Below are positions 2,316 through 51,777 of a stretch of 64,000 nt of DNA, in pieces. Each line of letters starts with the position of its first letter. The first letter of the stretch is position 1. The notes below the pieces were generated by a model. That model searched no databases. It saw only the letters and a list, made by a program, of their open reading frames with translations, and had not been told where the DNA came from. Source of the DNA: Acidimicrobiia bacterium. Its GTDB lineage: Bacteria; Actinomycetota; Acidimicrobiia; IMCC26256; DASPTH01. The translations under genes were made by a program, and so were the position numbers. The stretch lies in the NCBI GenBank assembly GCA_036502765.1, contig DASXXX010000053.1, forward strand, positions 172-64,171. Reading direction: 5' to 3'.

Positions 2316-2361
2316 GCCCTGCCTCCTGCCCCTGAGACCACGAGCGTAGAGACTGCTGCGA

Positions 2362-3642: not shown

Positions 3643-3646
3643 GGGG

Positions 3647-4432: not shown

Positions 4433-4444
4433 GAGCGCTACGGG

Positions 4445-7086: not shown

Positions 7087-7123
7087 CCGGCGCGGTCGCG
7101 TGCGGCGCGCATCACTCGGCTGG

Positions 7124-8665: not shown

Positions 8666-8740
8666 CGTCGTCGGAACCTAGTGCGGGCCGACTGCGCGCC
8701 GAGCTCCAGCCCCGCGGTGTCGGTCGGTAGCGTCGCGGAA

Positions 8741-10478: not shown

Positions 10479-10936
10479 CCGCTTGTCTCCTCGGTTGCGA
10501 TCCCTCGTTCGTTCGCGAGCTGCGCGATCTGAGCGCGAGCGGCGTCGATCAACTCCGCGTTGGTGTTCGCGTGGCCTGCGAGACCCCAACCGCCGTCGAT
10601 CGCCTCGGTCAGGAGCACCCAGGTGCGTGACGCCAGCGTCGGGTCATCGGCGGCTGCGGCCACGATCTGCGTGAGGCGGGAGACGACCGCGAGCTGCTTC
10701 TCTCGGTTGAGTCCGCCGGCGTTGGTGAGCACCTGCACACGGACGTAGTCGCGATCACCGTCGACGTTGGAGAGCGCGTCGCCCGGCAGGTCGTGCACGA
10801 ACGCCGCAGTGTTCTGACGGAACAGCGGCACGTCCGGCACCTCCTCGACCTGCATGAGCGCGAGTGCCAGGTCGGCAGTCAACCGCCGCGTGTCGCGGAA
10901 GGTGCCCGCGGTCGCGTACACGTCGATCATGGGCAT
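10475..10936 (-). CDS. tautomerase-family protein (4-OT superfamily, long form)
   Basis: 153 aa starting MPMIDVY (Pro-1 after Met removal), the tautomerase hallmark. GGAGAG box upstream. First gene of a three-gene minus-strand operon. Confidence 0.65.
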   Translation of the reverse strand: MPMIDVYATAGTFRDTRRLTADLALALMQVEEVPDVPLFRQNTAAFVHDLPGDALSNVDGDRDYVRVQVLTNAGGLNREKQLAVVSRLTQIVAAAADDPTLASRTWVLLTEAIDGGWGLAGHANTNAELIDAARAQIAQLANERGIATEETSG

Positions 10937-11051
10937 CAGCGGCTCTCCTCCGTCGGTGCGCTATGTATGATGACATGCATACTACGCAGGAGTCTGACGT
11001 CGTGCATAGTGTCGAGCCGAGGACTCAACCCGAGCGCGAACAGGCGAGCCG

Positions 11052-11621
11052 ATGCCGCAGGGCGACGACGTTCGAGCGACCATGGCCGAAGGCGCGACCC
11101 GACTCCTCGCGACGAACGGGATGGCGGGGACGACGTTCGCCGAGGTGCTCGCACGGACGGGGGCGCCACGCGGGTCGATCTATCACCACTTCCCGGGTGG
11201 GAAGTCGGAACTGATCCACGCGGCCTTGGACCTCGCCGACACCTTTGGCAAAGAGGCCATCGAGTCTGTCCGGGGCCGTCCCGCGACCGAGGTCGTGACG
11301 ACCTTCATCGAGCAGTGGCGTGCGTTGCTGGTCGGATTCGACCTGCGCGCCGGGTGCGCGGTGGTGGCAGTCGCGGTGTCGACGAACGATCCGGAGTTGC
11401 GGGAGCACGCCGGCGCCGTGTTCCGCGAGTGGACCGAGCTCCTGGCCGGGTTGTTGATCGACGGCGGCATCGACGCGCAGTCGGCGCCCGCACTCGCGGC
11501 CCTCGTGATTTCTGCGACCGAAGGCGCGGTGGCGGTGAGCCGAGCGGAAGGCGACATCAAGTCGTTCGAGTTGGTCGCAACCCAGCTCCTCGAACTCGTC
11601 GCCGCGCGGGCGCTCCCGTAG
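11052..11621 (+). CDS. TetR/AcrR-family transcriptional regulator
   Basis: 189 aa. The HTH TTFAEVLARTGAPRGSIYHHFPGGKSEL is the canonical TetR_N motif. Divergent from the tautomerase operon. Confidence 0.85.
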   Translation: MPQGDDVRATMAEGATRLLATNGMAGTTFAEVLARTGAPRGSIYHHFPGGKSELIHAALDLADTFGKEAIESVRGRPATEVVTTFIEQWRALLVGFDLRAGCAVVAVAVSTNDPELREHAGAVFREWTELLAGLLIDGGIDAQSAPALAALVISATEGAVAVSRAEGDIKSFELVATQLLELVAARALP

Positions 11622-11704
11622 CTCCCCCGGCGCACCAGCAGACTGCACCGCGAGCGCTTGACAGCAAGACTGTCCCGCTCGAGCCTGCCTGAGCGAGCTC
11701 TCGG

Positions 11705-12289
11705 TCAGGCGAGCCCGCGCGCGAGCTGGTCGAACGCCTCGTCGAGGACGCCGGCGAAGTCGGTGCCAGGAATACCGAGCCACGTGTCGAAGACGATTCG
11801 GAATGCGGCCATCGACACCGCGACCCGCAGGCGCAGGTCGTGTGCGGCGAGTGGGGCGGCTGCGACGCGGTTGCGGCGCTCGAGCTCGTCGAAGAGCCTG
11901 GCCTCCCACCCGCGCTGCTGCTCGGCCTTGTCGGCCCGAAGGCTCGGTGATCCGTCGAGCACGCGCGCCCGGGTGACGTGTCGAGCGCGCTCCGGCTCGT
12001 AGGCGAGCGCCAAGGTGTGCAGTGAGCGGTGGAGCACCTCGAGCGGCGGATCCTCGAGGGGCTGCTCGGCGACGATCTCGAGAAGCGCGGCGCATCGCTG
12101 CTGCGAATCGACGAAGAGCAGCTCCTCCTTGGTGGCGTAGTAGCGGAAGAAGGTGCGCGGCGACACCTCGCACGCTTCGGCGATCTCCTCGACCGTGGTC
12201 TGGTCGAAGCCGTTGCGGGCGAAGAGGTCCATCGCCACGTCGTGCAGCGTGGCGCGGGTGCGAGCCTTCTTGAGCTCTCGGAGACCCAT
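11705..12289 (-). CDS. TetR-family transcriptional regulator
   Basis: Last 194 codons of ORF 11705..13702: MGLRELKKARTRATLHDVAMDLFARNGFDQTTVEEIAEACEVSPRTFFRYY. The remainder of that ORF is antisense to the MFS gene. Confidence 0.85.
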   Translation of the reverse strand: MGLRELKKARTRATLHDVAMDLFARNGFDQTTVEEIAEACEVSPRTFFRYYATKEELLFVDSQQRCAALLEIVAEQPLEDPPLEVLHRSLHTLALAYEPERARHVTRARVLDGSPSLRADKAEQQRGWEARLFDELERRNRVAAAPLAAHDLRLRVAVSMAAFRIVFDTWLGIPGTDFAGVLDEAFDQLARGLA

Positions 12290-12367
12290 GAAGACATTCT
12301 GACATAACCCGCCGGTTGGCAGGATATGCAGACTGTCAGTTCGTTTCTTCTGGCATGAAGTGACAGA

Positions 12368-14062
12368 ATGCGGACAATGACTGCTGCGACCCCCCGTGCC
12401 ACCCCCGGCGCCACCCCCGGCGCGACCCCCGGAACGGCCGCCGACAGCGTCTACGAGCGCCGGTGGTGGACCCTCGGCGTCCTCTGCCTCAGCTTGCTGA
12501 TCGTGTTCGTCGGCAACTCGAGCTTGAACGTCGCGCTGCCCTCGCTGGCGCGTGATCTCGGAGCCACCGAGTCGCAGCTGCAATGGGTGGTCGCGTCCTA
12601 CTCGCTCGTCTTCGCGGGGCTGCTGTTCACGGCCGGTGCGCTCGGAGATCGATTCGGACGCAAGGGCGCGCTGCAGTTCGGCCTCGCCGCTTTCTTCGTG
12701 GGCGCGGCGGCGGCGTCGCAGGCAACCACGATGGGGCAACTGATCGGTTGTCGCGCGGTGATGGGTGTCGGTGCGGCGTTCATCATGCCGTCGACCCTGT
12801 CGATCCTCGTGAACGTCTTCCCCGAGGGTGAACGCGCCAAGGCGATCGCGATCTGGGCCGCCACCGTGGGCGTCGCTGGCGCGATCGGCCCGCTCATGAG
12901 TGGCTTCCTGCTCACCCACTTCTGGTTCGGGTCGGTGTTCCTGATCAACCTCCCGATCATCGCCCTCGCGCTGGTCGGCGGATGGTTCCTGGTGCCGAAG
13001 TCGCGCGATCCCGAAGAGGCGCGACTCGATCCGGTCGGCGCGGTGCTCTCGATCGTGGGCATCTCGTCGCTCGTGTTCGCGCTCATCCAGGCCCCCGACA
13101 AGGGATGGGGCGCGCCACAGACGGTCGGTGCGTTCGTCGTCTCGTTCGTGGTGCTCGCGTTGTTCGTCGTGTGGGAGCTGCACACCGACGAGCCGATGCT
13201 CGACATGCGCTTCTTCCGGAACCCGAGCTTCAGCACCGGGAGCGGCGGCATGCTGCTCGTGTTCCTCGCCATGTACGGCGTCCTCTTCCTCATGACGCAG
13301 TACTTCCAACTGGTGCTGAACGACTCGCCGTTGGCCGCGGCGGCGCGGTTGCTGCCCATGGCGCCGATCATGCTCATCGTCGCGCCGTTCACGCCGCAGT
13401 TGAGCAGGCGCTTCGGCGCGAACCGCGTCGTCGGGATGGGCATGGTGCTCATCGCGGTCGGGTTCGCGATCTTCTCCCAGGTCGGGCTCACGACGCCCTA
13501 CTGGGTCATCCTGGTCATGCTCGTGCCGCTCGTCTCGGGGATGGCGATGTCGATGTCGCCGATGACCTCGGCGATCATGGCGGCGGTACCGGCGCGGCGA
13601 GCGGGGGCGGGATCGGCCATGAACGACGCCACCCGAGAGCTCGGCGCCGCCCTCGGCGTCGCAGTGCTCGGCTCCATCGCCGCGTCGCAGTACAGCAGCC
13701 ATCTCCGCGACGCGGTCGGCAAGCTTCCCGCCTCGTCGCGGTCGGCCGCGAGCTCGTCGATCGCCGGCGCGCTGGACGCCGCGAAGTCACTCCCCGCGTC
13801 CGCCACGCAGGCCTTCGACCTCCTCGCCCGCACCGCCTTCGTCGACGGCATCCGCGTCGCCGGGCTCTTCGGCGCCGCGCTCGCCCTCGCCGCCGCAGTC
13901 GTCACCGTCCGCTACCTCCCGCGCTCGTTGCCCGACGAGGGCGCGCTGCACTCCCCAGTCGACGCGCTCGAGAACGTCGCCGAGCTCGGTCTCGGCGGTG
14001 TGCTCCCGGTGTTCGCCGACGAGCACTTCCCCGGCGACGCCGCGGTCGAGCATCCTGTGTGA
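12368..14062 (+). CDS. MFS transporter, DHA2 (EmrB/QacA-like, 14-TMS) drug:H+ antiporter family
   Basis: 564 aa, many hydrophobic spans, motif A-like GALGDRFGRKG. Divergent from the TetR gene. Confidence 0.9.
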   Translation: MRTMTAATPRATPGATPGATPGTAADSVYERRWWTLGVLCLSLLIVFVGNSSLNVALPSLARDLGATESQLQWVVASYSLVFAGLLFTAGALGDRFGRKGALQFGLAAFFVGAAAASQATTMGQLIGCRAVMGVGAAFIMPSTLSILVNVFPEGERAKAIAIWAATVGVAGAIGPLMSGFLLTHFWFGSVFLINLPIIALALVGGWFLVPKSRDPEEARLDPVGAVLSIVGISSLVFALIQAPDKGWGAPQTVGAFVVSFVVLALFVVWELHTDEPMLDMRFFRNPSFSTGSGGMLLVFLAMYGVLFLMTQYFQLVLNDSPLAAAARLLPMAPIMLIVAPFTPQLSRRFGANRVVGMGMVLIAVGFAIFSQVGLTTPYWVILVMLVPLVSGMAMSMSPMTSAIMAAVPARRAGAGSAMNDATRELGAALGVAVLGSIAASQYSSHLRDAVGKLPASSRSAASSSIAGALDAAKSLPASATQAFDLLARTAFVDGIRVAGLFGAALALAAAVVTVRYLPRSLPDEGALHSPVDALENVAELGLGGVLPVFADEHFPGDAAVEHPV

Positions 14063-14117
14063 GCGCGCACAGGCGCCTGAGTCCGTCCCGACAATCGCGA
14101 GCCGAGGAGAACCTCCC

Positions 14118-14558
14118 ATGCCGAACCTCTCGTTCCCTTCAGTGTGGTCAGCGCACGTACCCGCCCGCGTCATCGCCGGCGCCTTCATCCTCCACTCGGG
14201 CATCGACAAGTGGAAGGGCGACGAAGCCACTGCGGCCGCCGTGCACGGCATGGCCGCGGGCACGTACCCGTTCCTGGCGAAGCTCGCACCCGACACGTTC
14301 CTGAAGCTGTTGGCCGCCGGCGAAATCGCGGTCGGCGCTGCGGTCGCGCTCCCCGTCGTGCCCGAGCGCGTCGCGGGCGCCGCGCTCACCGGGTTCGCTG
14401 GTGCGCTCCTCGGCCTCTACGCACGCACGCCCGGGATGCGGAAGCCGCACAGCATCTGGCCGACTCAGCAAGGCATCGCCGTCAGCAAGGACGCCTGGCT
14501 GCTCGGCATCGGCCTGACGCTCCTCGCCGAGTCCTTCACCGCGCCGGATCCGGCCTGA
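14118..14558 (+). CDS. putative membrane protein (DoxX-like)
   Basis: Internal ATG preceded by GAGGAGAACCTCCC. 146 aa with about four hydrophobic segments (VIAGAFILHSGIDKW..., AGEIAVGAAVALPVV...). Confidence 0.5.
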   Translation: MPNLSFPSVWSAHVPARVIAGAFILHSGIDKWKGDEATAAAVHGMAAGTYPFLAKLAPDTFLKLLAAGEIAVGAAVALPVVPERVAGAALTGFAGALLGLYARTPGMRKPHSIWPTQQGIAVSKDAWLLGIGLTLLAESFTAPDPA

Positions 14559-14630
14559 CCGTCCAGGCCGTGGCATCCGATAACTGACACGGAGTTGCTC
14601 TTCGGGTGGCGGGCCCTGATCATGTGACGC

Positions 14631-15779
14631 ATGAGCGAATCCGCGATCGAACCGGCGTCGACCGACGACGTGATCGTCGACGCCGACGGCCACCTCTGCG
14701 AGCCTCCTGATCTCTGGACCCGCGGCCTTCCCGCCCACCTCGCCGACCAGGGCATCCGCCTGATCTGGGACGAGGCTTCGGGCTACGACCGGTGCCTGGT
14801 CGAGGATCGCGTCGTCGTCGAACGCGGGCTCGCCGGACTCGGCAACGCGGGTGAGGGCTTCGACGACTTCGGTCGCGGTCGCCACTACGAAGACCTGAAC
14901 CCGGCGGGTTTCGACGCGTCCGAGCGGGTGAAGGTGCTCGACGCCGAGGGCATCGACGTCTCGGTGATGTACCCGGGTCTCGGTCTGAAGCTCGGTGGCA
15001 TCGAGGACGCGGAGCTCGCGGTGTGGTCGTGTCGCGTCTACAACGACTGGGTCGCCGAGTGGTGCGCCGCGGCACCCGAACGGTTGAAGGGAACGGGCGC
15101 GCTCCCGCTCCAGGATCCCGCGGCCGCGGCCGACGAGGCTCGCCGGGTCAAGGACCTCGGGCTCGTCGGCACGTTCGTGCGTCCGAACGCGTACAACGGC
15201 GTGCCGTTCCACGACCTGCAGTACACGCCGGTGTGGGAAGCACTCGAGGAGACCGGCCTCGCGCTCGGGCTGCACATCACGGGTCTCTCCGACATGCCGG
15301 GAGCCGCACGCGGGATGGGCGCGTTGATGGCACCGGGCACGCACCACGCGCTGATCCCGGTCATCGACCAGATGGTGACGCTCTCGAACCTGACCTACGG
15401 CGGCGTGCTGGAGCGTCACCCCGAGTTGAAGGTGGCGGTGCTCGAGAGCGGCGGGGGCTGGATCGCCCACTGGATGGACCGCCTCAACGAGTTCGAGGAG
15501 AGCTACTACTGGGCCGCGGCGCCGATGACGCTCAGCGCCGAGGAGTACTTCCAGCGGCAGTGCTGGGTCAGCTTCGATCCCGGGGAGCGCACCGCGAGCG
15601 TGCTCGGCGCGCTGATCGGCCCCGATCGCATGATCTGGGCGTCGGACTTCCCTCACAACGACGCGAAGTACCCCGGCGTCATCGACGAGCTCCGCGAGCA
15701 CAACGACGGCCTTCCCGAGCCGGACCGTCGTGCCCTGTACGGGCTCAACGCGTGCGACCTCTATGACCTCGCACTTTGA
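14631..15779 (+). CDS. amidohydrolase-family protein (PF04909-like)
   Basis: 382 aa. DADGHLCEP, YNDWVAEW and WASDFPHND are motifs typical of amidohydrolase_2 enzymes. Confidence 0.85.
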   Translation: MSESAIEPASTDDVIVDADGHLCEPPDLWTRGLPAHLADQGIRLIWDEASGYDRCLVEDRVVVERGLAGLGNAGEGFDDFGRGRHYEDLNPAGFDASERVKVLDAEGIDVSVMYPGLGLKLGGIEDAELAVWSCRVYNDWVAEWCAAAPERLKGTGALPLQDPAAAADEARRVKDLGLVGTFVRPNAYNGVPFHDLQYTPVWEALEETGLALGLHITGLSDMPGAARGMGALMAPGTHHALIPVIDQMVTLSNLTYGGVLERHPELKVAVLESGGGWIAHWMDRLNEFEESYYWAAAPMTLSAEEYFQRQCWVSFDPGERTASVLGALIGPDRMIWASDFPHNDAKYPGVIDELREHNDGLPEPDRRALYGLNACDLYDLAL

Positions 15780-17451
15780 CCTCCTGATCCGCGGCGGGAC
15801 GGTCGTCGACGGCACCGGCGCTCCGGCGCGCACGGCCGACGTCGCGATCCGCAACGGGCGGATCGCCGCGGTCGGTCAGCTCGACGACACCGCCGCTCGC
15901 GTCATCGACGCCGACGGCCTGCTGGTGACACCCGGCTTCGTCGACATCCACACCCACTACGACGCGCAGCTCCACTGGGATCCGACGGCGTCGCCGGCGT
16001 CGTGGCACGGCGTGACCACACTGCTCACGGGCAACTGCGGCTTCACGATCGCGCCGGCCGAGTCGCACGATGTCGACTGGCTGCTCCAGATGCTGAGCCG
16101 CGTGGAAGGCATGTCGGCGGACGCGCTCGCGGAGGGGGTGCGCTTCCGCGGCGGGACCATCGCCGACTTCCTCGACGGGCTCGAAGGTCGGCTCGGCGTG
16201 AACATGGGCGCAAACGTCGGACACTGCGCGGTGCGGCGTCACGTCATGGGCGACGACGCGTCCGAGCGCGTCGCCACCGCAGACGAGATCAGCGCGATGC
16301 AAGCACTCGTCCGCGCCGCGATGCGCGATGGCGCGATGGGATTCACCTCGTCACAACTGGAACTGCACGTCGCGCACGACGGCCGAGGGGTCCCGTCCAA
16401 CTACGCGGACCACGACGAGCTGATCGCGCTCGCCGGGGTCCTCGCCGAGTTCGGTCGCGGCTCGATCGAGTTCATCCCCCGCAGCTTCCTCGTCGGCTAC
16501 GACAACGACGATCGCGCGCTCATCCGCGCCATGGCCCGCGCATCGGGACGGCCCGTGCACCTCAACACGCTCACGAGCATGCCCCACGCACCCGACGGCT
16601 GGTCGCGCAGCCTCGAGTTCGCCGAGACCGCCGCCGAGGACGGTCTCGCCCTCCACCCGATGTTCGCCACGAACCGCCCCGGCGTCCACTTCTCCCTCGG
16701 GTCGACGTTCCTGTTCGACGAGATGCCGACCTTCCGCGAGACCCTGACCCTCCCAACCCCGGCGCGCCGGGACTGCCTGTGCGACCCCGCGGTGCGCGAC
16801 CGCATGCGCACCGAGCTCGCCGACCCTGCAGGGCGCTCGTTCGTCTTTGCGTGGGACGTGCTGCGCGTCGAGCGCGTGCTGCACCCGGTCAATGAGCGCT
16901 GGCTCGACCAGTCGATCACCGAGATCGCGCACGCGACGAACGCCGACCCCCTCGACGCCTTCCTCGACCTCTCCCTCGACGAGGACCTCGAGACCCAGTT
17001 CGGCGTCGCCCGGCCGCCCTCGCCGGAACGCCTCGAGGCGACCGCGCGCATGATCCGATCGCCCGTCGTCATGGCCGGGTCATCAGACGGCGGCGCGCAC
17101 CTCCTGTCGTACTGCGGCGCCGACTACACCACGCGCCTGCTCACCGAGTGGGTCCCCTCCACGCTGACCCTCGAACAGGCCGTCGCGCGACTGACCGCGA
17201 TACCGGCACGGGCCACCGGCATCCTCGATCGAGGCACGCTCGCTCCCGACATGGCCGCCGACGTCTTGCTGATCGACCGCGCGTCGCTCGGCGCGGGTTC
17301 GGCCCGGTACGTGCGGGACTTCCCGGCCGACTCAGGGCGGTTCGTGGTCGACGCGACCGGCTACCAGGCCGTCATCGTCAACGGTGAGCCCCTGCACGAG
17401 GACGGAGCCTGGACCGGCGCCACTCCGGGACACGTCGTGAGGTCCGGTTGA
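15763..17451 (+). CDS. N-acyl-D-amino-acid deacylase (D-aminoacylase) family amidohydrolase
   Basis: Starts at the internal Met (MTSHFDLLIRGGTVVDGTGAP...VTPGFVDIHTHYD), the classic D-aminoacylase/amidohydrolase_3 N-terminus. Overlaps the upstream gene by 17 nt. Confidence 0.85.
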   Translation: MTSHFDLLIRGGTVVDGTGAPARTADVAIRNGRIAAVGQLDDTAARVIDADGLLVTPGFVDIHTHYDAQLHWDPTASPASWHGVTTLLTGNCGFTIAPAESHDVDWLLQMLSRVEGMSADALAEGVRFRGGTIADFLDGLEGRLGVNMGANVGHCAVRRHVMGDDASERVATADEISAMQALVRAAMRDGAMGFTSSQLELHVAHDGRGVPSNYADHDELIALAGVLAEFGRGSIEFIPRSFLVGYDNDDRALIRAMARASGRPVHLNTLTSMPHAPDGWSRSLEFAETAAEDGLALHPMFATNRPGVHFSLGSTFLFDEMPTFRETLTLPTPARRDCLCDPAVRDRMRTELADPAGRSFVFAWDVLRVERVLHPVNERWLDQSITEIAHATNADPLDAFLDLSLDEDLETQFGVARPPSPERLEATARMIRSPVVMAGSSDGGAHLLSYCGADYTTRLLTEWVPSTLTLEQAVARLTAIPARATGILDRGTLAPDMAADVLLIDRASLGAGSARYVRDFPADSGRFVVDATGYQAVIVNGEPLHEDGAWTGATPGHVVRSG

Positions 17452-31752: not shown

Positions 31753-31762
31753 GTGCTTCAGA

Positions 31763-31809
31763 TGGTGGCGGGGGAAGGATTTGAACCTTCGACCTTCGGG
31801 TTATGAGCC
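31763..31809 (-). repeat. att direct repeat, left copy (displaced 3' 47 nt of tRNA-Met including CCA)
   Basis: tggtggcgggggaaggatttgaaccttcgaccttcgggttatgagcc is identical to 51701..51747. Here the tRNA D-arm and 5' half are missing, so this is a fragment and not a gene. Confidence 0.9.
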
Positions 31810-31912: not shown

Positions 31913-31941
31913 TGCAACCATTTGGGTTGCAAAATGGTTGC
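31913..31941. repeat. subterminal 29-bp box TGCAACCATTTGGGTTGCAAAATGGTTGC (left copy)
   Basis: Identical to 51611..51639. Contains an 11-bp perfect inverted repeat (TGCAACCATTT / AAATGGTTGCA) and three GGTTGCA direct units. Lies about 100 bp inside the left att repeat. Confidence 0.8.
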
Positions 31942-36333: not shown

Positions 36334-39326
36334 CAGCCGGCCCTCCCCACATACGAACGGATCGCGTTCTTGGCGTCCCACGGATCTCGAATCTCGATGA
36401 AGTCCCACCGACCGAAGCCGCCGTGCGCGTTCACCGCCGGGATCCAGAAGTTCTTCGTGGTCGCGACCTTCTCAACCTTGTCGCGACGGAAGCCGCCGCT
36501 GACCTCTACGACAAGGTTGAGTGGAACATCGAGGCTCTCGTCGTAGCGGACAATGAAGTCGGGCAGGTAGTTGCGCTGCTCACCGTCGATCGCGTACGGG
36601 ATCGTGAAGCCGAGATGATCGTTCTTCACGTACGCGAGCACCTCGTCCATCGATTCCAAGCTCTCAGCCATCTTTCCTTCCCAACCAGAGTCGAGGACTA
36701 CGTGGCTGACATGGCACTTGTAGGGGCTGGTCTCGTAGACCTTCCTCGTCGTGTCGAAGTCGACGACAGCACTGGAGCCGCGATCACCGTCTGGCCGGAA
36801 TACCGGCTGGAGCCTCACCGTCTCCGGGTTCGTACGCACGATCGCTCGGTGTATGCGCGCCGCCGCGGCGTCCGCGAGTTTGTGGATTAGTAAGAGTTGG
36901 GGGAACGTGTCGTCCTTGCACTGAACGCACCGCCGCATCCAGTCGGAGACGATCGGGACCAGCTTCGGAAACAGCCACGCTTCCTCAAATCCGTCCTCGT
37001 CACGGAAATGGTTCTGGACGAGCCGGCGGGTAAGGCGGAAGGCGACCTCTTGCTCTCGAGTGGCGTGGAGCTGCTCGAGGGTGTGAACCTCAGTCGCGCC
37101 AACGATGCCAGCGATGTCGGTCTGGGTCGGCACGTCCTTGGTCGACAGCGCGAGGCGCGAGTCGGCGGTGAACCTCGCGCTCAGCTCGTCGGTCGACAGC
37201 ACGTACCGGTAGCCAGCGATGAGCGGGAAGTTGATCGCCGAGCCCTCGCGGCCAGGCAGCGCCCGCACGCGGGTGGTCGCGATCTCGGGCTTGGGCGTCT
37301 GCTCTGATCCCGCGGTCGGGATGAATGAGAAGGGAACGCCGTAGACCTCGGCGTACTCGGGCTCGAGACGGCCTTCGTCGTTGACGACATAGCTGCGGCG
37401 CCGAAGCCCGCGCCCCACGACTTGCTCGCACAGGAGCTGGGTGCCGAAGGCGCGAACGCCGAGAATGTGCGAGACCGTCGTCGCGTCCCAACCTTCGGTC
37501 AACATCGAGACCGAGACGACACAACGTACCTGCTCGCCGAGCTTGCCCGGCTTGCCCACGGTGTTGAGTACCTCGCGGAGAAGATCCTCGTCGGTGAGCT
37601 CCTCGGAGCTCCGACCCGGGAAGCGTTCTCGGTACTCGGCCTTGAACTCCTCGATCTCCGTGGCCGCGATCCGCTTGAACTCGTCGCTCATCACCTCGCC
37701 CGACTCGAGCTGCTCCGAGTCGACAAGGATCGTGTTGGGGCGATGAGTCCAATGGCCGTCCTCGACGTTCGAGAAGAGCGTCAGCTCTCCAGGCACCGGA
37801 ACGACGGACCCATCCGGGAGAGACTTCGACCAGCCAGCGACGTAGTCGAAGATCATCTTCGACACCGCCGTGTTGTTGCAGACGACGATGAACACCGGCG
37901 GCGTCGACGCGCTGCTCGCCGTGACGCTCTCTTGCCAGCCGACGAACGACTTCTCGTAATGCTCGTAGAGACTGTGGAGCGCACCTTGCAGCTCAGCCGG
38001 AAGTCGGGGGCCTGTCCCGTTATCGACGCCGGCGCTCCGGCGGTTCTTCTTGGGAAGCCCATCCTTGATTCGCAGCCAGAGGTTGCGGTACGTGACACCG
38101 TCGCCCAGCATCGCGTTGTCGCTCACGGGCACACGCGGAATCTTCACGATGCCGCACTCGACCGCGTCGGTGAGCGAGAAGTCGGAGACGACCCAGGGAA
38201 AGAGCTTGCCCTCGCGGTAACCGGAGCCGCCGAGGAAGAACGGCGTGGCCGAGAGGTCGTAGACCGTCTTCACGCCGAGCTTGGCGTGGATAGCCTGTAA
38301 CCCCGAGATCCAGACCATCGCCTCCTCGTTGCGGAGGTCGGCCTCTCGCTTCTCGTCACCCGTGAGCTTCACGTCGGCCGCTTCGCCGTCGGCAGCGTCC
38401 GCGGGACGACGCGCGTAACAGTGATGCGCCTCGTCATTCAACACCACGATCTGGTTCCGCCCGGCTCCGAGGTCGCGGCAGACGCGGCGAACCATCTGGT
38501 CCGGCGTCTCGCGGAAGGGATCGGAGCCGTCGGGATTCAGCACTGACTTCGTGAGACGGGCCGCCTTTCCCGCCTTCGTCTCACGCAACAGGAACGCGTG
38601 GAAGTTGGTGATGACGATGCGAGCCCGACCAAGCTGGTCCACGAGGTCGGCGGGGACGATGTCGCGCTGGCGGTAATAGTTGTCGGGGTCGCTCGGTAGC
38701 ACGACGCGCAAACGGTCCCTGATCGTGATGCCCGGCGTGACGATGAGGAACCGGTCGGAGAACCGGGCGTCCTGCGGGTTGGCAGCCTTGTTGAGCGTCT
38801 GCCAGGCGATCACCATTGTCATGACGACCGTCTTGCCCGATCCGGTCGCCATCTTGTGCGCGACGCGGAACAGCCCTGGGTTGTAGCGCGCGCTCTCGTC
38901 CGTGAGCAGGTTGGTGATCCAGACGTCGCCGACCTTGGTCGCGACCTCGGCGACGTAGATCGCGGTCTCGAGCGCCTCGATCTGGCAGAAGAAGAGTCGA
39001 CGCTCGCGCTCCGGACTGGTCCAGTAGGCGAGGAGCCGCCGGGTGGTCGGCGTGACACCCTGCCAACCGCCGAGGCGCCAACGCGCGACCCGCTCGCGAA
39101 TGCGGTTGATGTTCTCGCTGACCTCGATCCGGTCCCGCGTCCACTCGGCGTCGAGCGCGAGCTGCCCGCCCCGCTTCTTCGTCGCCGGGATCGGCACGAA
39201 GTACGAGCTGGGGCGACGGCCGTCGACGACTTCGTCGGTGATCCCGTCGTCGTCGAACCGGAAATGCTGGATGGGCTCGTCGTAGGGCGAGTTGAGGATC
39301 GGGTTCTCGATCACGACCGGCTTCAT
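36333..39326 (-). CDS. res: type III restriction enzyme Res-like DEAD/DEAH helicase-nuclease
   Basis: Start at MKPVVIENPILNSPYDEP (ATGA overlap with the upstream HTH gene). Walker A MATGSGKTVV, DEAH box LNDEAHH, C-terminal PD-(D/E)xK-like YLPDF...VVEVSGGFRRDK. Confidence 0.85.
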   Translation of the reverse strand: MKPVVIENPILNSPYDEPIQHFRFDDDGITDEVVDGRRPSSYFVPIPATKKRGGQLALDAEWTRDRIEVSENINRIRERVARWRLGGWQGVTPTTRRLLAYWTSPERERRLFFCQIEALETAIYVAEVATKVGDVWITNLLTDESARYNPGLFRVAHKMATGSGKTVVMTMVIAWQTLNKAANPQDARFSDRFLIVTPGITIRDRLRVVLPSDPDNYYRQRDIVPADLVDQLGRARIVITNFHAFLLRETKAGKAARLTKSVLNPDGSDPFRETPDQMVRRVCRDLGAGRNQIVVLNDEAHHCYARRPADAADGEAADVKLTGDEKREADLRNEEAMVWISGLQAIHAKLGVKTVYDLSATPFFLGGSGYREGKLFPWVVSDFSLTDAVECGIVKIPRVPVSDNAMLGDGVTYRNLWLRIKDGLPKKNRRSAGVDNGTGPRLPAELQGALHSLYEHYEKSFVGWQESVTASSASTPPVFIVVCNNTAVSKMIFDYVAGWSKSLPDGSVVPVPGELTLFSNVEDGHWTHRPNTILVDSEQLESGEVMSDEFKRIAATEIEEFKAEYRERFPGRSSEELTDEDLLREVLNTVGKPGKLGEQVRCVVSVSMLTEGWDATTVSHILGVRAFGTQLLCEQVVGRGLRRRSYVVNDEGRLEPEYAEVYGVPFSFIPTAGSEQTPKPEIATTRVRALPGREGSAINFPLIAGYRYVLSTDELSARFTADSRLALSTKDVPTQTDIAGIVGATEVHTLEQLHATREQEVAFRLTRRLVQNHFRDEDGFEEAWLFPKLVPIVSDWMRRCVQCKDDTFPQLLLIHKLADAAAARIHRAIVRTNPETVRLQPVFRPDGDRGSSAVVDFDTTRKVYETSPYKCHVSHVVLDSGWEGKMAESLESMDEVLAYVKNDHLGFTIPYAIDGEQRNYLPDFIVRYDESLDVPLNLVVEVSGGFRRDKVEKVATTKNFWIPAVNAHGGFGRWDFIEIRDPWDAKNAIRSYVGRAG

Positions 39327-39559
39327 CGGCGGTGCTCCCGGCCGGCTGAATCGGTCGGCCGGCCGTGTTGGCGCATCCAGTCGACGACCTGCGACCGCAG
39401 CCAAAGCCGGGGACGGCCGGGCCCAAGATCGATCACAGGACGCGGCATGTCCGGATAGCGCCGTTGGTAGCGGCTCACTGTGTTCCGCTGCGCCAGCCCC
39501 ATCAACGTCGCTACGCCCTGCGCGTCGATCAGGTCAGCGATCTCAACCGTCTTCGGCAC
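39323..39559 (-). CDS. excisionase/MerR-type helix-turn-helix DNA-binding protein (possible R-M controller)
   Basis: 78 aa. LIDAQGVATLMGLAQRNTVSRYQRR...RLWLRSQVVDW resembles small HTH_17/excisionase-family proteins. First gene of the HTH-res-mod operon. Confidence 0.65.
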   Translation of the reverse strand: MPKTVEIADLIDAQGVATLMGLAQRNTVSRYQRRYPDMPRPVIDLGPGRPRLWLRSQVVDWMRQHGRPTDSAGREHRR

Positions 39560-39647
39560 GGCCGGAGGCTACACCCGTTGACAAGCTCCAGCGCGACTAC
39601 CGCTCGCTGGCGCACGGGTGCACGTCGTAGACGACACGGACGCGGCC

Positions 39648-39828
39648 GGGAGTGATCGCGCGCGACCGGGTGTCAGGCAGGAGTCATCCGGGCCCACGCC
39701 GGGAGTCATCCGGCGCAGGCGGGAGCGATCCGCTCCTCAACCGGGAGCGACCGCGTGTTCGCTCCCGCAGAAAAATCTCTCGGCGGGAGTGATCGGGAGT
39801 AATTCCGGGAGTGATCGCGGGAGTGACA
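39648..39828. repeat. iteron-like array of about nine GGGAG(T/C)GA(T/C)C direct repeats with embedded inverted repeats
   Basis: Copies at about 39648, 39679, 39701, 39721, 39743, 39785, 39795, 39807 and 39819, with one more at about 40250. Two local palindromes: GGAGCG-ATC-CGCTCC and GGGAGCGA-N8-TCGCTCCC. Located in the divergent HTH/HTH intergenic region. Confidence 0.75.
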
Positions 39829-39910
39829 GTCCTCATCCTCACGGTCCAAGACGTCGGATCTTCGATCACGACGTCCCAACCGGCCCAACGTGCGCCCAGG
39901 AGGACTTGTC

Positions 39911-40285
39911 ATGGAGAGACTCACCTACACCGTCGCTGAGGTCGCCCAGGCCTTGGGCGTCTCGCGCTCGAAGGCATACACGCTCGTCGCCGAAGGGGCG
40001 ATCCCGATCGTTGCACTGCCCGGGCGGCGCAAGCTCGTCGCACGAGCGACGCTCGAGCAGCTGCTCGGGACTGGCACATCGTCAACCCGCGCCGAGTCGC
40101 GGACGACACCATCCGACCAACCCATCCTCGCCCACGACACCCGACCAGAGAGCCCGACCCACCACACCGAAAACAACCGACACCCAACCCCTCCCAGCAC
40201 GACCAACCACCCCGCGATCCCACATCAGACAGTTGCACCAGGGGTGCGCGGGAGTGATCAGGCACGGCGTGAGCCGTCGCGCTGA
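39911..40285 (+). CDS. excisionase-family HTH DNA-binding protein (Xis / relaxase accessory candidate)
   Basis: ATG preceded by GGAGGACTTGTC. MERLTYTVAEVAQALGVSRSKAYTLVAEGAIPIVALPGRRKLVARATLEQLL is the HTH_17 excisionase pattern. Low-complexity tail. The stop overlaps the relaxase start (TGATG). Confidence 0.7.
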   Translation: MERLTYTVAEVAQALGVSRSKAYTLVAEGAIPIVALPGRRKLVARATLEQLLGTGTSSTRAESRTTPSDQPILAHDTRPESPTHHTENNRHPTPPSTTNHPAIPHQTVAPGVRGSDQARREPSR

Positions 40286-42750
40286 TGCTCTCGATCGGGA
40301 AGCTCCGCCTCGAAGACGGTGTCGACTACTACCTGCGGACAGTCGCCGACGGTACCGAGGAGTACTACACCGCGCAGCACGAAGCCCCGGGCCGCTGGAT
40401 CGCCTCGAGTGAGCTGCTCGTCGGATTGTCGGGCGAGGTCTCGGGCTACGAGCTGCGCGAGGTGCTGGAGGGTCGGGACCCCTCGAGCGGCCTGATGCTT
40501 GTCTCGTCGCGGCGCACCCGTCCTGGGTTCGATCTGTGCTTCTCCGCGCCCAAGTCGATGTCATTGCTGTTCGTGTTCGGCGACTCCGCCATACGGCGAG
40601 CGGTCGTCGAGGCGCACGAGCGTGCCGTCCAGGCGTCGCTGGACTACCTGGAACGCGAGGCCTGCTGGGTCCGCCGAGGCCACGCCGGCGTTCTCCGGGT
40701 TCGCGCTGACGGGTTCATCGCCGCCGCGTTTCGACATCGGACGAGCCGCGCGGGTGACCCACAACTGCACACGCACGTCGTCGTCGCCAACGCCGCCCGC
40801 GGGCCCGACGGCAAGTGGAGCGCATTGCATGGCTACGCCCTCTACGAGAGCGCCCTGACGGCCGGTTACCTGTACCAGGCGCATCTGCGCCACGAGATCA
40901 GCCGCTCGCTCGGCGTCCGCTGGGGACCTGTGATATCAGGCTGCGCCGAGATGGCCGAGATCCCGGCCCATGTGCTCGAGGCGTTCAGCAAGCGAAGCGC
41001 CGACATCGAACGAAAGAAGGCCGAACAAGGCGTCACCGGACGGCACGGCGCAAAAATCGCCACGCTCGCCACCCGACCGGCGAAGGATCCTGAGGTCGAC
41101 GTCGCGTCGCTATTTCGCGAGTGGGAACGCCAAGCCGCCGACCTGGGCTTCGAGGCTACGACAGTTCGGTCACTCATCAGCCGTCGCGTCCACCCCGGCC
41201 TCGGGCGCGTCAACGATGGCGAGGTCGTTGACTCCTTGACGTTGCGCCAGTCGACGTTCGAGCGCGCCGAAGTCGTGCGAGCCGTCGCCGAGCGCGCACC
41301 CGACGGCGCGGCCGTCGGGGAGATCGAACGGTACGCCGATGCGCTCCTGGCCGGTGACCGCGTGGTGCGCGTGGCCGACGATATGTACTCGACTCCGCCG
41401 ATGCTCCGCCTCGAAGCCGGAATCCTCGAAACCGCGCAGCGACGCCTCGGAGGCGGGCTCGGTGTGGCTGATGTGGGTCTGGTCGAGACCGAGATCAGCC
41501 GACGACTCGTGCTGTCGGCCGATCAGGAAGACATGGTGCGGCAGCTCACAACATCGGGCAACGGTGTCGAGGTCGTCCTCGGTGTCGCGGGCGCAGGGAA
41601 GACCTCCGGACTCGAATGTGCGCGGACGATCTGGGAAGCCAGCGGCTACCAGACGATCGGCGTCGCGCTGGCTGCCCGCGCCGCCGTCGAGCTCGAGACC
41701 CGCTCCGGGATCCCGAGTTGCACGCTCGATGCGTTGCTCAGGGACCTCGCGCAACCCGGTGGTCCGCTGCCGTCACGCACCGTCGTGGTCGTGGACGAGG
41801 CCGCGATGGTCGACACCCGCCGACTCGCCCGCCTCCTGGTCCACACCGACGCCGCCGGCACGAAGGTCGTCCTCGTCGGCGACGATCACCAGCTTCCCGA
41901 GATCGGCGCCGGAGGAGCGTTCGCAGGCCTGCTCCGCCAGCTTCCCGCGGTCGTGCTCGCCGAGAATCGTCGGCAGACGGACGCGGTGGACCGACTGGCG
42001 CTCGCCGAGCTGCGCACCGGCAACGCCGAAGCGGCCGTCCGGCGGCTCGTCGCCAACGGGCGCATCAGCCTGGTCGACACAGCAGACGCGGCGCGCGAGC
42101 AGATGGTCCACGACTGGCGAGCAGCGACGCGGGGCGGGGACGACGCCGTGATGCTCGCCTCACGTCGAGTCGACGTCGAGGATCTCAATCGACGAGCCCG
42201 CTCGCAGCTCGTCGAAGAGGGCGCGGTGTATGCCCGAGGGATCACGATCCATGGTCACGAGTTCGCCGTCGGCGACCGCGTTATGACCCTGAGCAATCGC
42301 CGACGGCTCGGCGTCACGAACGGTGACCGTGGCACCGTCGTCGCCATCTGTGATGGGGAGGTCGCCATGCGCCTCGATCGGGGACCAACTATCGCTCTCC
42401 CAGCGAGCTACCTGCATGCCTGCCATCTCACCCACGCCTACGCCACGACGATCCACAAGGCCCAAGGCATGACGTGCGACCGCGCGCTGGTCCTCGCCAA
42501 CAATGCAATGTTCCGAGAGGCCGGCTACACGGCTCTGTCCCGTGGCAGGAAGGAGAACCGGCTGTACGTCATCACGCCCGATCGGCCGGATGTCGACGTC
42601 GGCCATGGCATCTTTGGCGACAGCGACCACCCACTCGACCGACTCGTCTCGACACTGGAACAATCACGGGCGAAGCACCTCGCCCTCGAAGAACTCATGC
42701 GAGGCCCAGCGGTGGACCCGCCGGCTCTCGGCCGGGGCATCGATCTGTAA
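40285..42750 (+). CDS. MobF-family relaxase (TrwC/TraA-like) with C-terminal RecD-like helicase
   Basis: 821 aa. N-terminal Tyr pair (VDYYL...EEYYT), 3-His motif HRTSRAGDPQLHTHVVVAN, helicase Walker A GVAGAGKTS and Walker B VVVVDEAAMV. Confidence 0.9.
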   Translation: MLSIGKLRLEDGVDYYLRTVADGTEEYYTAQHEAPGRWIASSELLVGLSGEVSGYELREVLEGRDPSSGLMLVSSRRTRPGFDLCFSAPKSMSLLFVFGDSAIRRAVVEAHERAVQASLDYLEREACWVRRGHAGVLRVRADGFIAAAFRHRTSRAGDPQLHTHVVVANAARGPDGKWSALHGYALYESALTAGYLYQAHLRHEISRSLGVRWGPVISGCAEMAEIPAHVLEAFSKRSADIERKKAEQGVTGRHGAKIATLATRPAKDPEVDVASLFREWERQAADLGFEATTVRSLISRRVHPGLGRVNDGEVVDSLTLRQSTFERAEVVRAVAERAPDGAAVGEIERYADALLAGDRVVRVADDMYSTPPMLRLEAGILETAQRRLGGGLGVADVGLVETEISRRLVLSADQEDMVRQLTTSGNGVEVVLGVAGAGKTSGLECARTIWEASGYQTIGVALAARAAVELETRSGIPSCTLDALLRDLAQPGGPLPSRTVVVVDEAAMVDTRRLARLLVHTDAAGTKVVLVGDDHQLPEIGAGGAFAGLLRQLPAVVLAENRRQTDAVDRLALAELRTGNAEAAVRRLVANGRISLVDTADAAREQMVHDWRAATRGGDDAVMLASRRVDVEDLNRRARSQLVEEGAVYARGITIHGHEFAVGDRVMTLSNRRRLGVTNGDRGTVVAICDGEVAMRLDRGPTIALPASYLHACHLTHAYATTIHKAQGMTCDRALVLANNAMFREAGYTALSRGRKENRLYVITPDRPDVDVGHGIFGDSDHPLDRLVSTLEQSRAKHLALEELMRGPAVDPPALGRGIDL

Positions 42751-42782: not shown

Positions 42783-43928
42783 ATGCGTGGGAGCGTCATC
42801 AAGCGAGGCAACTCCTGGTCGGTCGTTATCGACTTCGGCCGGGACGCCGCCGGGAAGCGGATGCGCAAATGGCATTCGGGATTCGAGACTCGCAAGGAGG
42901 CCGAACGCGCGCGCACGGAGATCCTGAGCCGGCTCGACCACGGTACCTACGTCGAACCCGACCGTCGCACACTCAGTGACTTCCTGGAGCACGACTGGCT
43001 GCCAGCGATCAAGGCACGCATCCGGCCCTCGACCTGGGACAGCTACGCGCGCAATGTTCGCCTTCATGTCGTCCCTGAGCTTGGCGGCGAGCATCTCCAG
43101 TCGATCACGCCCGCCCGCCTGAATCGCTTCTACGCGGAAATGCTCGAGAGCGGTCGCATTGGCAGCGAGCGCGGCCTCTCACCCAAGACGGTCCGCTACG
43201 TGCACGGGATCATTCGCAAGGCGTTCGCCGATGCCGTCCGGTGGAACGTCGTGCAGAGGAACGTCGCGGATCTCGCCGATCCACCGAAGGTCGGGGCCGC
43301 GGGACGCGAGATGCAGACCTGGACCGCCGACGAGCTGCGAACCTTCCTCCACCACATCGAGGACCAGCGGCTCTACGCCGCCTACCTGCTCGCGGCCACT
43401 ACCGGGATGCGGCGCGGCGAGGTTCTCGGGCTGCGCTGGCAGGATGTCGATCTCGACCTTGCTCGGCTGTCGGTCCGCCAGACCATCGTCTCGGTCGCGT
43501 ACGAGATCAAGTTCGCCGAGCCCAAGACCACGCGGAGCCGCAGGTCGATCGCGCTCGATCAACGAACCGTCGCCGTGCTTCGTTCTTGGCGGAAGGTGCA
43601 GCTCGAAGATCGCATCCTGCTCGGCGACGACTACGAGAACTCGGGGCTCGTCTTCACCCGCGAGGATGGGCGCTTCATCCACCCAGACCGTTTCAGCCAG
43701 CTCTTCGACAAGTACGTCGGCTCGTCGGGGCTACCTCGTATCCGGCTCCACGATCTACGCCACACGCACGCGTCGCTCGCGCTCGCCGCGGGAGTGCACC
43801 CGAAGGTCGTGAGCGAACGCCTCGGGCATGCCACCGTCGCGTTCACACTCGACGTTTACTCGCATGCCGTCCCGGCGCTTCAAGAGGACGCGGCAGATCG
43901 AGTTGCGGCGTTGGTCTTCGGCGCGTGA
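42783..43928 (+). CDS. int: tyrosine-type site-specific recombinase/integrase
   Basis: ATG after AGGAGGAAGC. 381 aa. SAM-like N-domain plus catalytic residues in GMRRGEVLGLRW, RLHDLRHTHASL and LGHATVAFTLDVYSH. Confidence 0.92.
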   Translation: MRGSVIKRGNSWSVVIDFGRDAAGKRMRKWHSGFETRKEAERARTEILSRLDHGTYVEPDRRTLSDFLEHDWLPAIKARIRPSTWDSYARNVRLHVVPELGGEHLQSITPARLNRFYAEMLESGRIGSERGLSPKTVRYVHGIIRKAFADAVRWNVVQRNVADLADPPKVGAAGREMQTWTADELRTFLHHIEDQRLYAAYLLAATTGMRRGEVLGLRWQDVDLDLARLSVRQTIVSVAYEIKFAEPKTTRSRRSIALDQRTVAVLRSWRKVQLEDRILLGDDYENSGLVFTREDGRFIHPDRFSQLFDKYVGSSGLPRIRLHDLRHTHASLALAAGVHPKVVSERLGHATVAFTLDVYSHAVPALQEDAADRVAALVFGA

Positions 43929-50886: not shown

Positions 50887-51619
50887 AATCCTCGGCCACC
50901 TCAAGCTCGTCCTCGCCCGCTTCGATGCGGCCGATCACATCGGCAAGCCTGGCCGCGCCATGGATGAAGATCGGCTGACCAAACGCGCGCTCCGGATCAG
51001 CGACGAGGATCGACTCTTCGGTGATTGGAAGAGCGAGTCGAATCGCCCAGCCGCCGTCGTACTCGATCCGCTTGAGGTACTGGTCGATCACATCGTGGAA
51101 CACGCGCTGGCCCGACCGAACGACAGTCAGAAGGCCAAGCTGTTTGTCTCGCTGTGACTTGGCGTAGTCGAAGAGCAGCTCCGCACCATCGGTGTACAGG
51201 TGACGGGACGCCAGCGCGTGCTCCAGACCCATCTCCTGGTCAAGTCGCTCGAGTGCCGGCCTAATCCGTTGCAGCGGGAGGCCGGTCTCGCGGAACGCGG
51301 CGAGGACCATGCCCTCCGCCAAGCCGACGAAGGGTATCGTCAGCCGTCCGCCCGGCACGCTCGTAAGCAGCGCCTCGCCTGCAACCGGTTTGCGCCCAGC
51401 CGGCCGACGAACATAGCCCCGCACCCACGTGTCGAACGTCGACCTCGGCACTCCGAGGTACGAGGCGGCCTCGGTCACCGTGTACAGCGGCCGGGTAAAA
51501 CGCGGGTCGGTGGTGTTCAGCGGAGCAGCCCTTCTCAAAGTCGAGACGGCCAAACCGTACCGCCGAGGTATGACGCGGACGCGGAGGAACGGCACCGATC
51601 GCGCGTGGGCTGCAACCAT
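50825..51619 (-). CDS. HTH + DUF433 antitoxin-like protein (VapB45-like), tentative
   Basis: RPLYTVTEAASYLGVPRSTFDTWVRGY (MerR-like HTH), with C-terminal GQPIFIHGAARLADVIGRIEAGEDELEVAEDYGVPLDDVHAAL (DUF433-like). Start uncertain: ATG at 51619, or TTG at 51538. Confidence 0.6.
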   Translation of the reverse strand: MVAAHARSVPFLRVRVIPRRYGLAVSTLRRAAPLNTTDPRFTRPLYTVTEAASYLGVPRSTFDTWVRGYVRRPAGRKPVAGEALLTSVPGGRLTIPFVGLAEGMVLAAFRETGLPLQRIRPALERLDQEMGLEHALASRHLYTDGAELLFDYAKSQRDKQLGLLTVVRSGQRVFHDVIDQYLKRIEYDGGWAIRLALPITEESILVADPERAFGQPIFIHGAARLADVIGRIEAGEDELEVAEDYGVPLDDVHAALAAPSRAAA

Positions 51620-51639
51620 TTGGGTTGCAAAATGGTTGC
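51611..51639. repeat. subterminal 29-bp box TGCAACCATTTGGGTTGCAAAATGGTTGC (right copy)
   Basis: Identical to 31913..31941. Lies about 60 bp inside the right att repeat. Confidence 0.8.
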
Positions 51640-51685: not shown

Positions 51686-51700
51686 GACCTGCATCTTCGA

Positions 51701-51777
<77 letters not shown>

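Follow-up and report, generated by a model that had tools for sequence, protein, structure and literature searches.

A repeat array between two divergent operons of an integrated island

The 64,000-nucleotide stretch of DNA analysed here (the window; contig DASXXX010000053.1 of an Acidimicrobiia metagenome-assembled genome (MAG), named C53 in locus comparisons) carries a 20-kb island bounded by 49-nt direct repeats, and in the interior of this island the region 39560-39910 separates two divergent sets of genes. On the minus strand, a gene for a 78-aa helix-turn-helix (HTH)-like protein (HTH78; 39323..39559) is the first of a leftward operon that continues with ResIII and N6_N4 methylase genes (HTH-res-mod). 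On the plus strand, a gene for a 124-aa Xis-like winged-helix protein (39911..40285) is followed by genes for a MOBF relaxase (40285..42750) and a tyrosine integrase (42783..43928), the stop codon of the xis-like gene overlapping the relaxase ATG. Between the two operons lies an array of short repeats, for which an initial annotation had proposed three roles, i.e. origin of transfer (oriT), operator or replication origin. In our reading, 39647-40260 is best described as an extended oriT-plus-operator region of the MOBF type in which the candidate hairpin of the nick site (nic) lies at 40235-40247, outside the palindromes of the array.

Direct reading together with a position weight matrix identified nine direct CGGGAGTGATC-type copies and one inverted copy in 39647-39828 as well as an eleventh copy, again direct, at 40249-40259; the consensus is CGGGAG(T/C)(G/C/A)A(T/C)(C/T). 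Cluster A (39647..39753, plus strand) comprises five direct copies that start at 39647, 39678, 39700, 39720 and 39742 (spacings of 31, 22, 20 and 22 nt), the copy at 39678 being degenerate (CAGGAGTCATCC). It is followed by the inverted copy (39757..39767, the minus strand of which reads CGGGAGCGAAC), by the A-rich spacer CAGAAAAATCTCTCGG (39768..39783) and by cluster B (39784..39828, plus strand), in which four near-tandem direct copies start at 39784, 39794, 39806 and 39818 (spacings of 10, 12 and 12 nt). The initial annotation had reported about nine repeats in the same orientation in the divergent region, four of them almost back-to-back at 39785..39828, and a further copy at about 40250 upstream of the relaxase gene; this description is borne out here, and the last-named copy occupies the most oriT-like spot of the locus.

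The hexamer CGGGAG occurs eight times in 196 nt where 0.098 occurrences would be expected from its rate in the rest of the window (Poisson P = 2e-13), whereas the degenerate 10-mer with one mismatch allowed is not enriched over the whole window (42 matches versus 37.6 expected). The significance of the repeats therefore lies in their clustering only and not in their window-wide frequency. The exact 11-mer is found four times in the window, each time inside 39647-40259, and 12 times in the 4.78-Mb genome versus none for a reversed control; at least four copies within 200 nt are present at three loci of the whole genome only, i.e. in the window and at the loci C64 and C316. Alignment of the array region with its counterpart in locus L017 requires gaps of 20, 3, 9, 13 and 10 nt, and the region is therefore non-coding; against Rfam, it gave a single match at chance level (ALIL, E = 0.94). 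In seven of seven measured arrays, the copy starts are phased with a period of 10.5-10.9 bp (R = 0.78-0.99; P = 0.0005-0.06 each, against random placements with equal copy number and equal span). The sites therefore lie on one face of B-DNA, as is expected of a filament-forming protein that binds double-stranded DNA.

The array also contains two palindromes, GGAGCG-ATC-CGCTCC at 39722 and CGGGAGCGA-N8-TCGCTCCCG at 39742-39767, which the initial annotation had noted together with the A-rich spacer and had considered able to form a hairpin typical of MOBF oriT regions. Both palindromes exist as described, and 39716-39772 as single-stranded DNA has a folding energy of -19.3 kcal/mol (z = -4.05). 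The interpretation is not supported, because they consist of the inverted copy paired with the direct copy at 39742 or that at 39720, because they are missing from the class II arrays described below and because the hairpin conserved in the relaxase family lies at 40235-40247.

Arrays of the same motif in related loci

Arrays of this motif are also present at two further loci of the window's own genome (G000), C64 (identical to L054) and C316 (identical to L053), as well as in L017, L059, L108, L177, L178, L183 and L188. L059 and L108 were found by a pattern scan of genomes, and L177, L178, L183 and L188 by a metagenome scan for the hairpin-motif junction described below. In each of these nine loci, a small HTH_17-type gene is preceded by the array at a distance of 30-400 nt, whatever the orientation of the array and whether or not a relaxase gene is present. 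The comparison of homologous relaxase operons that had been proposed as a check on the repeats thus finds them conserved.

L017, which comes from another Acidimicrobiia MAG and encodes the closest relative of the relaxase (69% identical), has the same gene order and layout as the window: a direct cluster, an inverted copy, an A-rich spacer, three tandem copies with 12-nt spacing, a conserved block, the xis-like gene and a copy in front of the relaxase gene. An inverted copy is at the matching place in L017, L177 and L183; the same three loci carry three to four tandem copies at the position of cluster B and keep the A-rich spacer as GAGAAATCCTCCGG (L017), CGAAAGATCCTCCGG (L183) and GAAGAAATTCCCG (L177). 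The arrays of relaxase-bearing loci fall into two classes: in class I (the window, L017, L177 and L183), the copies face xis and are accompanied by one inverted copy and a tandem block, whereas in class II (C64, L178 and L188) five to eight copies, mostly 21-22 nt apart, all face away from xis.

C64 is a second mobilizable island in the same genome, which is inserted in tRNA-Ser (87-15825, 15.7 kb, with a 55-nt direct repeat at 87 and 15771). Its relaxase gene (4545-2086, minus strand) encodes a protein 71% identical to that of the window and is preceded by xis (4894-4703, minus strand); its array (~5150-5260) is inverted, has 21-nt spacing and lies 5 kb inside the island, its divergent neighbour is a gene for an extracytoplasmic function (ECF) sigma factor (5283-6008), and three tandem motif copies are located 3' of its hairpin.

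Three of the loci lack a relaxase gene. C316 consists of tRNA-Val, an integrase gene, an HTH_17 gene and an array (element at 4788-6973); L108 carries an array, an HTH_17 gene, a HEPN/MNT pair and an integrase gene; and L059, from the same MAG as L017, has no relaxase gene within the 8 kb examined. The arrays of C316 and L108 (1990-2560 in the latter) have about 12 copies each and share a 445-bp non-coding array module that is 79% identical between the two MAGs, with unrelated flanks. In these relaxase-less loci, the motif stands beside hairpins with other stems, TTCCGC/GCGGAA in L059 and GGGCCCG/CGGGCCC in C316 and L108, each preceded by CACACTTCT; in C316, two such CACACTTCT-hairpin-motif units face each other across the array (6443, plus strand; 6928, minus strand). 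C316 also carries an orphan 3' fragment of tRNA-Met (7846-7892, about 950 nt beyond the array) that is 94% identical to the repeat bounding the window's island; its presence on a contig with an integrase gene next to tRNA-Val suggests a decayed or composite element.

Other candidates were rejected: 11 of the 15 junction matches in metagenomes are unrelated sequences, and most of the 120 matches in a scan of genome contigs for two nearby motif copies are due to chance. Arrays in L161, L170, L151 and L163 share a similar core in different sequence contexts, AT-rich in L161 and L170, and look unrelated. Two of them, in L161 (~2650-3100, minus strand) and L170 (~300-470, minus strand), are iteron-like with the cores ACGCGGGAGTGATAGAA and GGACGGGAGTAATTTTTAAAAG, respectively, the latter with a 22-nt period, and their likeness to the motif is probably a coincidence of a short core.

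The candidate relaxase hairpin and the proximal motif copy

The relaxase combines a TrwC domain (Pfam, 1.3e-78) with a RecD-like helicase (AAA_30, 2.5e-49). Its best match in the PDB is TrwC of plasmid R388 (1OMH, 2.5e-35), to which the His triad and one tyrosine pair align; both tyrosine pairs are present, the second having been read from the sequence outside the printed alignment. The closest plasmid relaxases are at most 38% identical, and no matching hairpin was found at the best plasmid relaxase locus (Corynebacterium pCFAEC45971c).

Upstream of the relaxase start lies the hairpin GCACC-AGG-GGTGC (40235..40247, plus strand), which is a candidate IR2-type recognition hairpin for the relaxase. 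A hairpin of this kind precedes the relaxase start in 26 of the 32 loci scanned, and CACA(C/G)-N2-7-T-GCACC-N3-4-GGTGC is the sole sequence conserved at this place among about 25 diverged loci. In an alignment of 21 sequences, 96% of the cells are paired, and two pairs have undergone compensatory double changes, giving GCATC/GATGC in L001 and ACACC/GGTGT in L024 and L026 (the latter change also in L025 and L032, which were not part of the alignment). When the whole genome was searched for GCACC-N3-4-GGTGC, the high G+C content led to chance matches that swamped the result, and only the extended form is specific.

The hairpin arms are identical to those of IR2 in the R388 oriT (PMC4176350). In R388, this element reads GCGCACCGAAAGGTGCGTATTGTCT|ATAGCC, where neither the proximal arm nor the 9 nt following it can be dispensed with and a purine is required directly 3' of the nick (PMC4176350). 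In the window, the proximal motif copy CGGGAGTGATC (40249..40259, plus strand) begins one base after the hairpin, about 420 nt downstream of the array; hairpin and copy end 26 nt before the relaxase ATG, and the array is 457-638 nt upstream of it. By analogy with the R388 geometry, i.e. 9 nt after the proximal arm, the nick is predicted at G40256|A40257, and the A after the predicted nick is conserved in the seven close loci that share the hairpin-plus-copy junction (the window, L017, C64, L177, L178, L183 and L188). In all seven, the block from ACAGTTGCACC to ATC is kept, while the following ~22 nt vary. The orientation of the proximal copy relative to the hairpin is constant while the orientation of the array flips between class I and class II, which fits recognition of double-stranded DNA at the array and a division of roles between the two sites.

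Other subfamilies of the relaxase have private short repeats directly after the same hairpin, i.e. GTCCCGG/CCGGGAC in L006, L009, L010 and L030 (~130 nt upstream of the relaxase gene) and two copies of GCGGCAACCATTC in L040 (3952-3988). A hairpin combined with a private repeat is thus a feature that recurs throughout the family.

The Xis-like protein

The Xis-like protein has an HTH_17 domain in residues 1-53 and a low-complexity tail. The Pfam HTH_17 score is 39.6 bits, and the four loci scanned score 38.8-51 bits, above the threshold. The AlphaFold model of the domain (confidence score, pLDDT, 80) has its best fold match in Xis of mycobacteriophage Pukovnik (PDB 4J2N; TM score 0.69-0.80, 28-29% identity); P2 Cox (4LHF) is among the top matches, and Streptomyces BldC (TM 0.71-0.73) and RdfS (8DGL, TM 0.60-0.65) match as well. 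Proteins of this fold have properties that bear on the array: Apl-type excisionases recognise direct repeats with a spacing of one helical turn, at the attachment site (att) as well as between divergent promoters (PMC7498355); BldC forms cooperative head-to-tail multimers on varying numbers of direct repeats (PMC5859096); and RdfS, whose gene opens an operon located upstream of oriT and of the relaxase gene, binds to its own promoter, forms oligomers and is required for conjugation and excision (PMC11963761).

Between the HTH domain and the hairpin lies a C+A-rich tract (40070..40234, plus strand; C 48%, A 28%, G 16%, T 7%). In class I it encodes the Pro/Thr/His-rich tail of the Xis-like protein, whereas in class II a tract of this kind is non-coding, and what is conserved may therefore be a property of the DNA and not of the protein.

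Array and proximal site co-vary in a sister subfamily

Four loci (L019, L022, L023 and L027) encode relaxases that are 39-40% identical to that of the window and keep the GCACC/GGTGC hairpin. Their motif is a different one, ACTGCACC or (A/T)CTGCACC(A/G), and it occurs both in a distal array upstream of the xis-like gene (three to seven copies with 12-nt or 21-24-nt spacing; inverted copies in three of the four loci) and as a single hairpin-proximal copy ~30 nt 5' of the hairpin. The recognition helix of the Xis-like protein reads SRSKAYTLV in the window's subfamily versus SRNAAYQAA in the sister subfamily. Because a change of the distal site is accompanied by one of the proximal site but not of the hairpin, the sequences point to one factor that binds both sites and is separate from the recognition of the hairpin by the relaxase.

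A model for the array and the nick region

Combining the layout and phasing of the repeats with their conservation, the linkage to HTH_17 genes, the covariation of the hairpin and the protein folds, we consider it reasonably likely that the array serves the Xis-like protein encoded downstream of it as an operator and as a platform for cooperative binding, with one site placed beside nic. In this model, Xis-like monomers would stack head-to-tail on the 10-11-bp sites on one face of the DNA and polymerise, and the resulting filament would cover the promoter region of the xis-relaxase-integrase operon and bend it; in this island, it would act on the divergent HTH-res-mod promoter as well. In class I arrays, 5 nt separate the end of the tandem block from the candidate -10 box CATCCT; a filament there would cover the -35 region and could either repress or activate the operon. 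The TrwC-type relaxase would bind the hairpin and nick at about 40256|40257, and the site at the side of the hairpin may recruit, position or occlude the relaxase. The Xis-like protein would in this way link expression of the operon to assembly of the relaxosome at nic.

Several observations weigh against this model. The HTH_17 proteins of loci that have this array motif in common share only 37-59% identity, and their presumed recognition helices differ (SRSKAYTLV, SRAFAYALV, SRTSAYERV and STRTMYRAI), so that a shared specificity is not self-evident. The hairpin has only 5 bp and is thermodynamically ordinary (-4.5 kcal/mol, z = -0.15); given this weak folding energy, it is comparison alone that speaks for it. 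The sequence of the 9 nt from hairpin to predicted nick is not conserved across the wider relaxase family. In the relaxase-less elements, the hairpins next to the motif have other stems, and the hairpin-plus-motif unit may therefore not be a nic site at all; these units would either be origins recognised by a relaxase through the motif and not through the stem, or have another function. The 85%-complete MAG yielded no match to VirB4 (PF03135), VirD4 (PF02534) or TraG-D_C (PF12696) and only a sub-threshold match to AAA_10, i.e. no type IV secretion system was found in it. Finally, as the island ends have no copies of the motif, a classical role of the Xis-like protein as an excisionase at att is not visible.

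The model assigns the functions that the initial annotation had considered for the array in the following way. An operator or accessory-site role fits the evidence. The array is a real, conserved cis element of the xis-relaxase-int module; as to the proposed oriT, nic likely resides at the separate hairpin downstream of the array. Coordination of restriction with mobility genes, which had also been suggested, could apply to class I at most, given that the divergent neighbour in C64 is the sigma-factor gene and that L108, C316 and L059 have no HTH-res-mod partner.

Among the alternatives, the array could be a transcriptional operator of the xis-like gene and nothing more, the copy at 40249 being a downstream operator or roadblock. 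That arrays lie upstream of xis-like genes in the relaxase-less L108, C316 and L059 speaks for such a restricted role, as does the failure to detect conjugation machinery in the 85%-complete genome. We nevertheless regard it as unlikely, since in seven loci the proximal copy abuts an IR2-like hairpin upstream of a TrwC-type relaxase gene and since the sister subfamily sets a motif of its own beside the same hairpin. Conversely, the motif could be the nic core of the relaxase itself, in which case the array would hold extra relaxase sites or decoy nic sites for autoregulation or relaxase-mediated recombination. The proximal copy does fill the stretch that TrwC reads as single-stranded DNA in R388 (the 9 nt after the proximal arm and the nick), and the junction is common to relaxases that are 63-98% identical. 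The copies in the array, however, have no hairpin arm, which TrwC needs for binding supercoiled DNA; the array is helically phased and inverts freely, both of which indicate a protein binding to double-stranded DNA; arrays are present in relaxase-less elements; and the L027 subfamily changes the repeat motif while keeping the hairpin. Moreover, nic-like sites on the transferred strand would be expected to risk premature termination. Together, these points make the reading of the motif as the nic core quite unlikely.

Two further explanations draw on the neighbourhood of the array and on its general appearance. In the window and in L017 the array lies between two divergent HTH genes, and the repeats could be operators of the 78-aa protein acting as a C-protein-like controller of the divergent res-mod operon, the more so as its gene is ancestrally adjacent to the array in class I, only insertion sequences (IS) intervening in L183. 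This protein, which has no Pfam match, has homologues in L017 (85% identical) and L183 (75% identical), and among the array loci compared its gene is confined to class I. No homologue was found elsewhere in the window's genome, and hence none in C64 or C316, nor in L108 or L059, although all four have arrays of the same motif; and in class I the copies are sparsest near the 78-aa gene, while the tandem block abuts the xis promoter. Control by the 78-aa protein is therefore very unlikely in our view. Att arms, iterons and parC-type centromeres, too, typically contain short direct repeats spaced by one helical turn, and the integrase has an arm-binding domain, so that the repeats could be integrase arm-type or att excisionase sites, replication iterons or a partition centromere. 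The array is, however, 8 kb away from one att copy and 12 kb from the other, no motif copies scoring at least 13 bits are present within 1.3 kb of either island end, a different box lies inside both ends, and the C64 array is likewise mid-island; integrase arm sites and a role at att are thereby ruled out. As to iterons or a centromere, no member of the Rep, ParA, ParM, ParB or ParR families was found among the 17 island open reading frames scanned, the unit has 10-12 bp, and there is neither an AT-rich region nor DnaA boxes. The iteron-type replication origin of the initial annotation is abandoned on these grounds, and this whole group of explanations seems to us extremely unlikely.

Comparison with known systems

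TrwA, the accessory protein of R388, binds two oriT sites, represses trwABC and stimulates nicking. The R388 oriT and the region described here share a MOBF relaxase, a 5-bp GCACC/GGTGC hairpin upstream of the relaxase operon and repeated accessory sites in the promoter region. The two systems differ in that TrwA is a ribbon-helix-helix protein whereas the presumed accessory protein here is an Xis/BldC-type winged helix (HTH_17), in the number of accessory sites (two versus about ten phased ones) and in the loop of the hairpin (4 nt versus 3 nt). In addition, the 9 nt before the nick, GTATTGTCT in R388, are unrelated to the GCGGGAGTG that precedes the predicted nick here, and R388 is a plasmid whereas the present element is an integrated island without a coupling-protein gene.

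RdfS of ICEMlSym R7A (PMC11963761) is likewise a winged-helix, excisionase-type protein with a matching fold that is encoded by the first gene of an operon upstream of oriT and relaxase gene. Its own sites have no consensus and it also binds attP, whereas the sharp 11-bp motif described here is absent from the att ends; the two systems also differ in phylum, relaxase family and element size. Apl of phage 186 and Cox of P2 (PMC7498355) combine the functions of excisionase and regulator and act on direct repeats one turn apart, at divergent promoters and at a second site; in these phage switches the second site is att, whereas here it is beside a relaxase hairpin in a mobilisation module. BldC (PMC5859096) and Pukovnik Xis (4J2N) are actinobacterial and have the same small fold, but BldC is a chromosomal developmental regulator and neither protein is linked to a relaxase.

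Plasmid iterons such as those of RepA/pPS10 and pi/R6K resemble the array in being clustered intergenic direct repeats with an occasional inverted copy serving as operator. They usually measure 17-22 bp, however, and are accompanied by a rep gene and by an AT-rich region containing DnaA boxes; the array described here has none of these features. Pukovnik Xis, deposited as a mycobacteriophage Xis, acts at att.

The motif as a possible shared address

In the window's genome, the island in tRNA-Met (C53), the island in tRNA-Ser (C64) and the relaxase-less C316 all carry the motif beside a CACA(C/G)-hairpin unit, and L017 together with L059 provides a second MAG with a pair of relaxase-bearing and relaxase-less elements. 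Tentatively, and with considerable doubt, we raise the possibility that the motif is a shared address by which the elements of one genome are linked into a mobilisation network, the relaxase-less ones being mobilised in trans, as oriT-only hitchers, through the relaxase and Xis-like protein that neighbouring elements supply. Elements of the latter kind have reportedly been named iOriTs in recent work. The genome of L108 yielded a single relaxase, a member of another subfamily whose hairpin is GCATC/GATGC and which lacks the motif, and the hitcher idea is therefore unsupported from that genome.

Transfer origins are known for very few integrated elements; we found none in the literature for Acidimicrobiia, and we know of no conjugation system described in this class. 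The locus provides a testable layout for a family of tRNA-inserted mobilizable islands with defence cargo, in which a sharp 11-bp site is combined with a putative binding protein and with a candidate nick that analogy with R388 places to about one base. It would also extend beyond the Proteobacteria the idea, based mainly on RdfS, that an excisionase-type winged helix connects operon control with the relaxase, in this case with a clear motif. If the hairpin-plus-motif unit is confirmed, it would give a search handle for origins and for relaxase-less hitchers in actinobacterial metagenomes.

Other features of the island

The left boundary of the island is a 49-nt direct repeat corresponding to the 3' part of tRNA-Met (left att copy, 31761..31809) and matching exactly the right att copy (51699..51747), which lies inside an intact tRNA-Met gene (51701-51777, minus strand). 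Besides the two HTH genes, the relaxase and the integrase (Pfam Phage_integrase and Phage_int_SAM_3, with Arm-DNA-bind_4 as the arm-binding domain), the island encodes Fic, a type III-like Mod and Res pair, DUF3892, a Rad50-like ATPase cassette, a Dyp-type peroxidase and a PIN_10 / HTH_66-DUF433 pair. A near-identical box, GCAACCATTTGGGTTGCAAAATGGTTGC, is found just inside both island ends (31913-31941 and 51611-51639) and is a better candidate than the GGGAG array for integrase arm or excisionase sites.

A scan of 39300-40400 for promoter and terminator consensus sequences found nothing, and the promoters proposed here are therefore deduced from conservation; G+C is ~68% in the bin 39001-40000 of the window. 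An alignment block kept with L017 across the HTH78 start (39547..39585, ..GGCTACACCCGTTGACA) contains TAGCCT on the minus strand 6 nt before the GTG and is a candidate leaderless promoter. In L183, an IS481-like transposase gene and an IS21-like istA/istB pair (10192-13620) are inserted between the HTH78-res operon and the array. On the other side, the class I block just 3' of cluster B (39829..39876, plus strand) probably represents promoter and 5' leader of the xis operon, with CATCCT (39834-39839) as the candidate -10 box. It includes the inverted repeat GACGTC-N14-GACGTC (39850-39875; -9.6 kcal/mol, z = -3.1), which is kept in L017, L183 and L177 between the last array copy and the ribosome-binding site of xis and may be an operator or a leader stem-loop.

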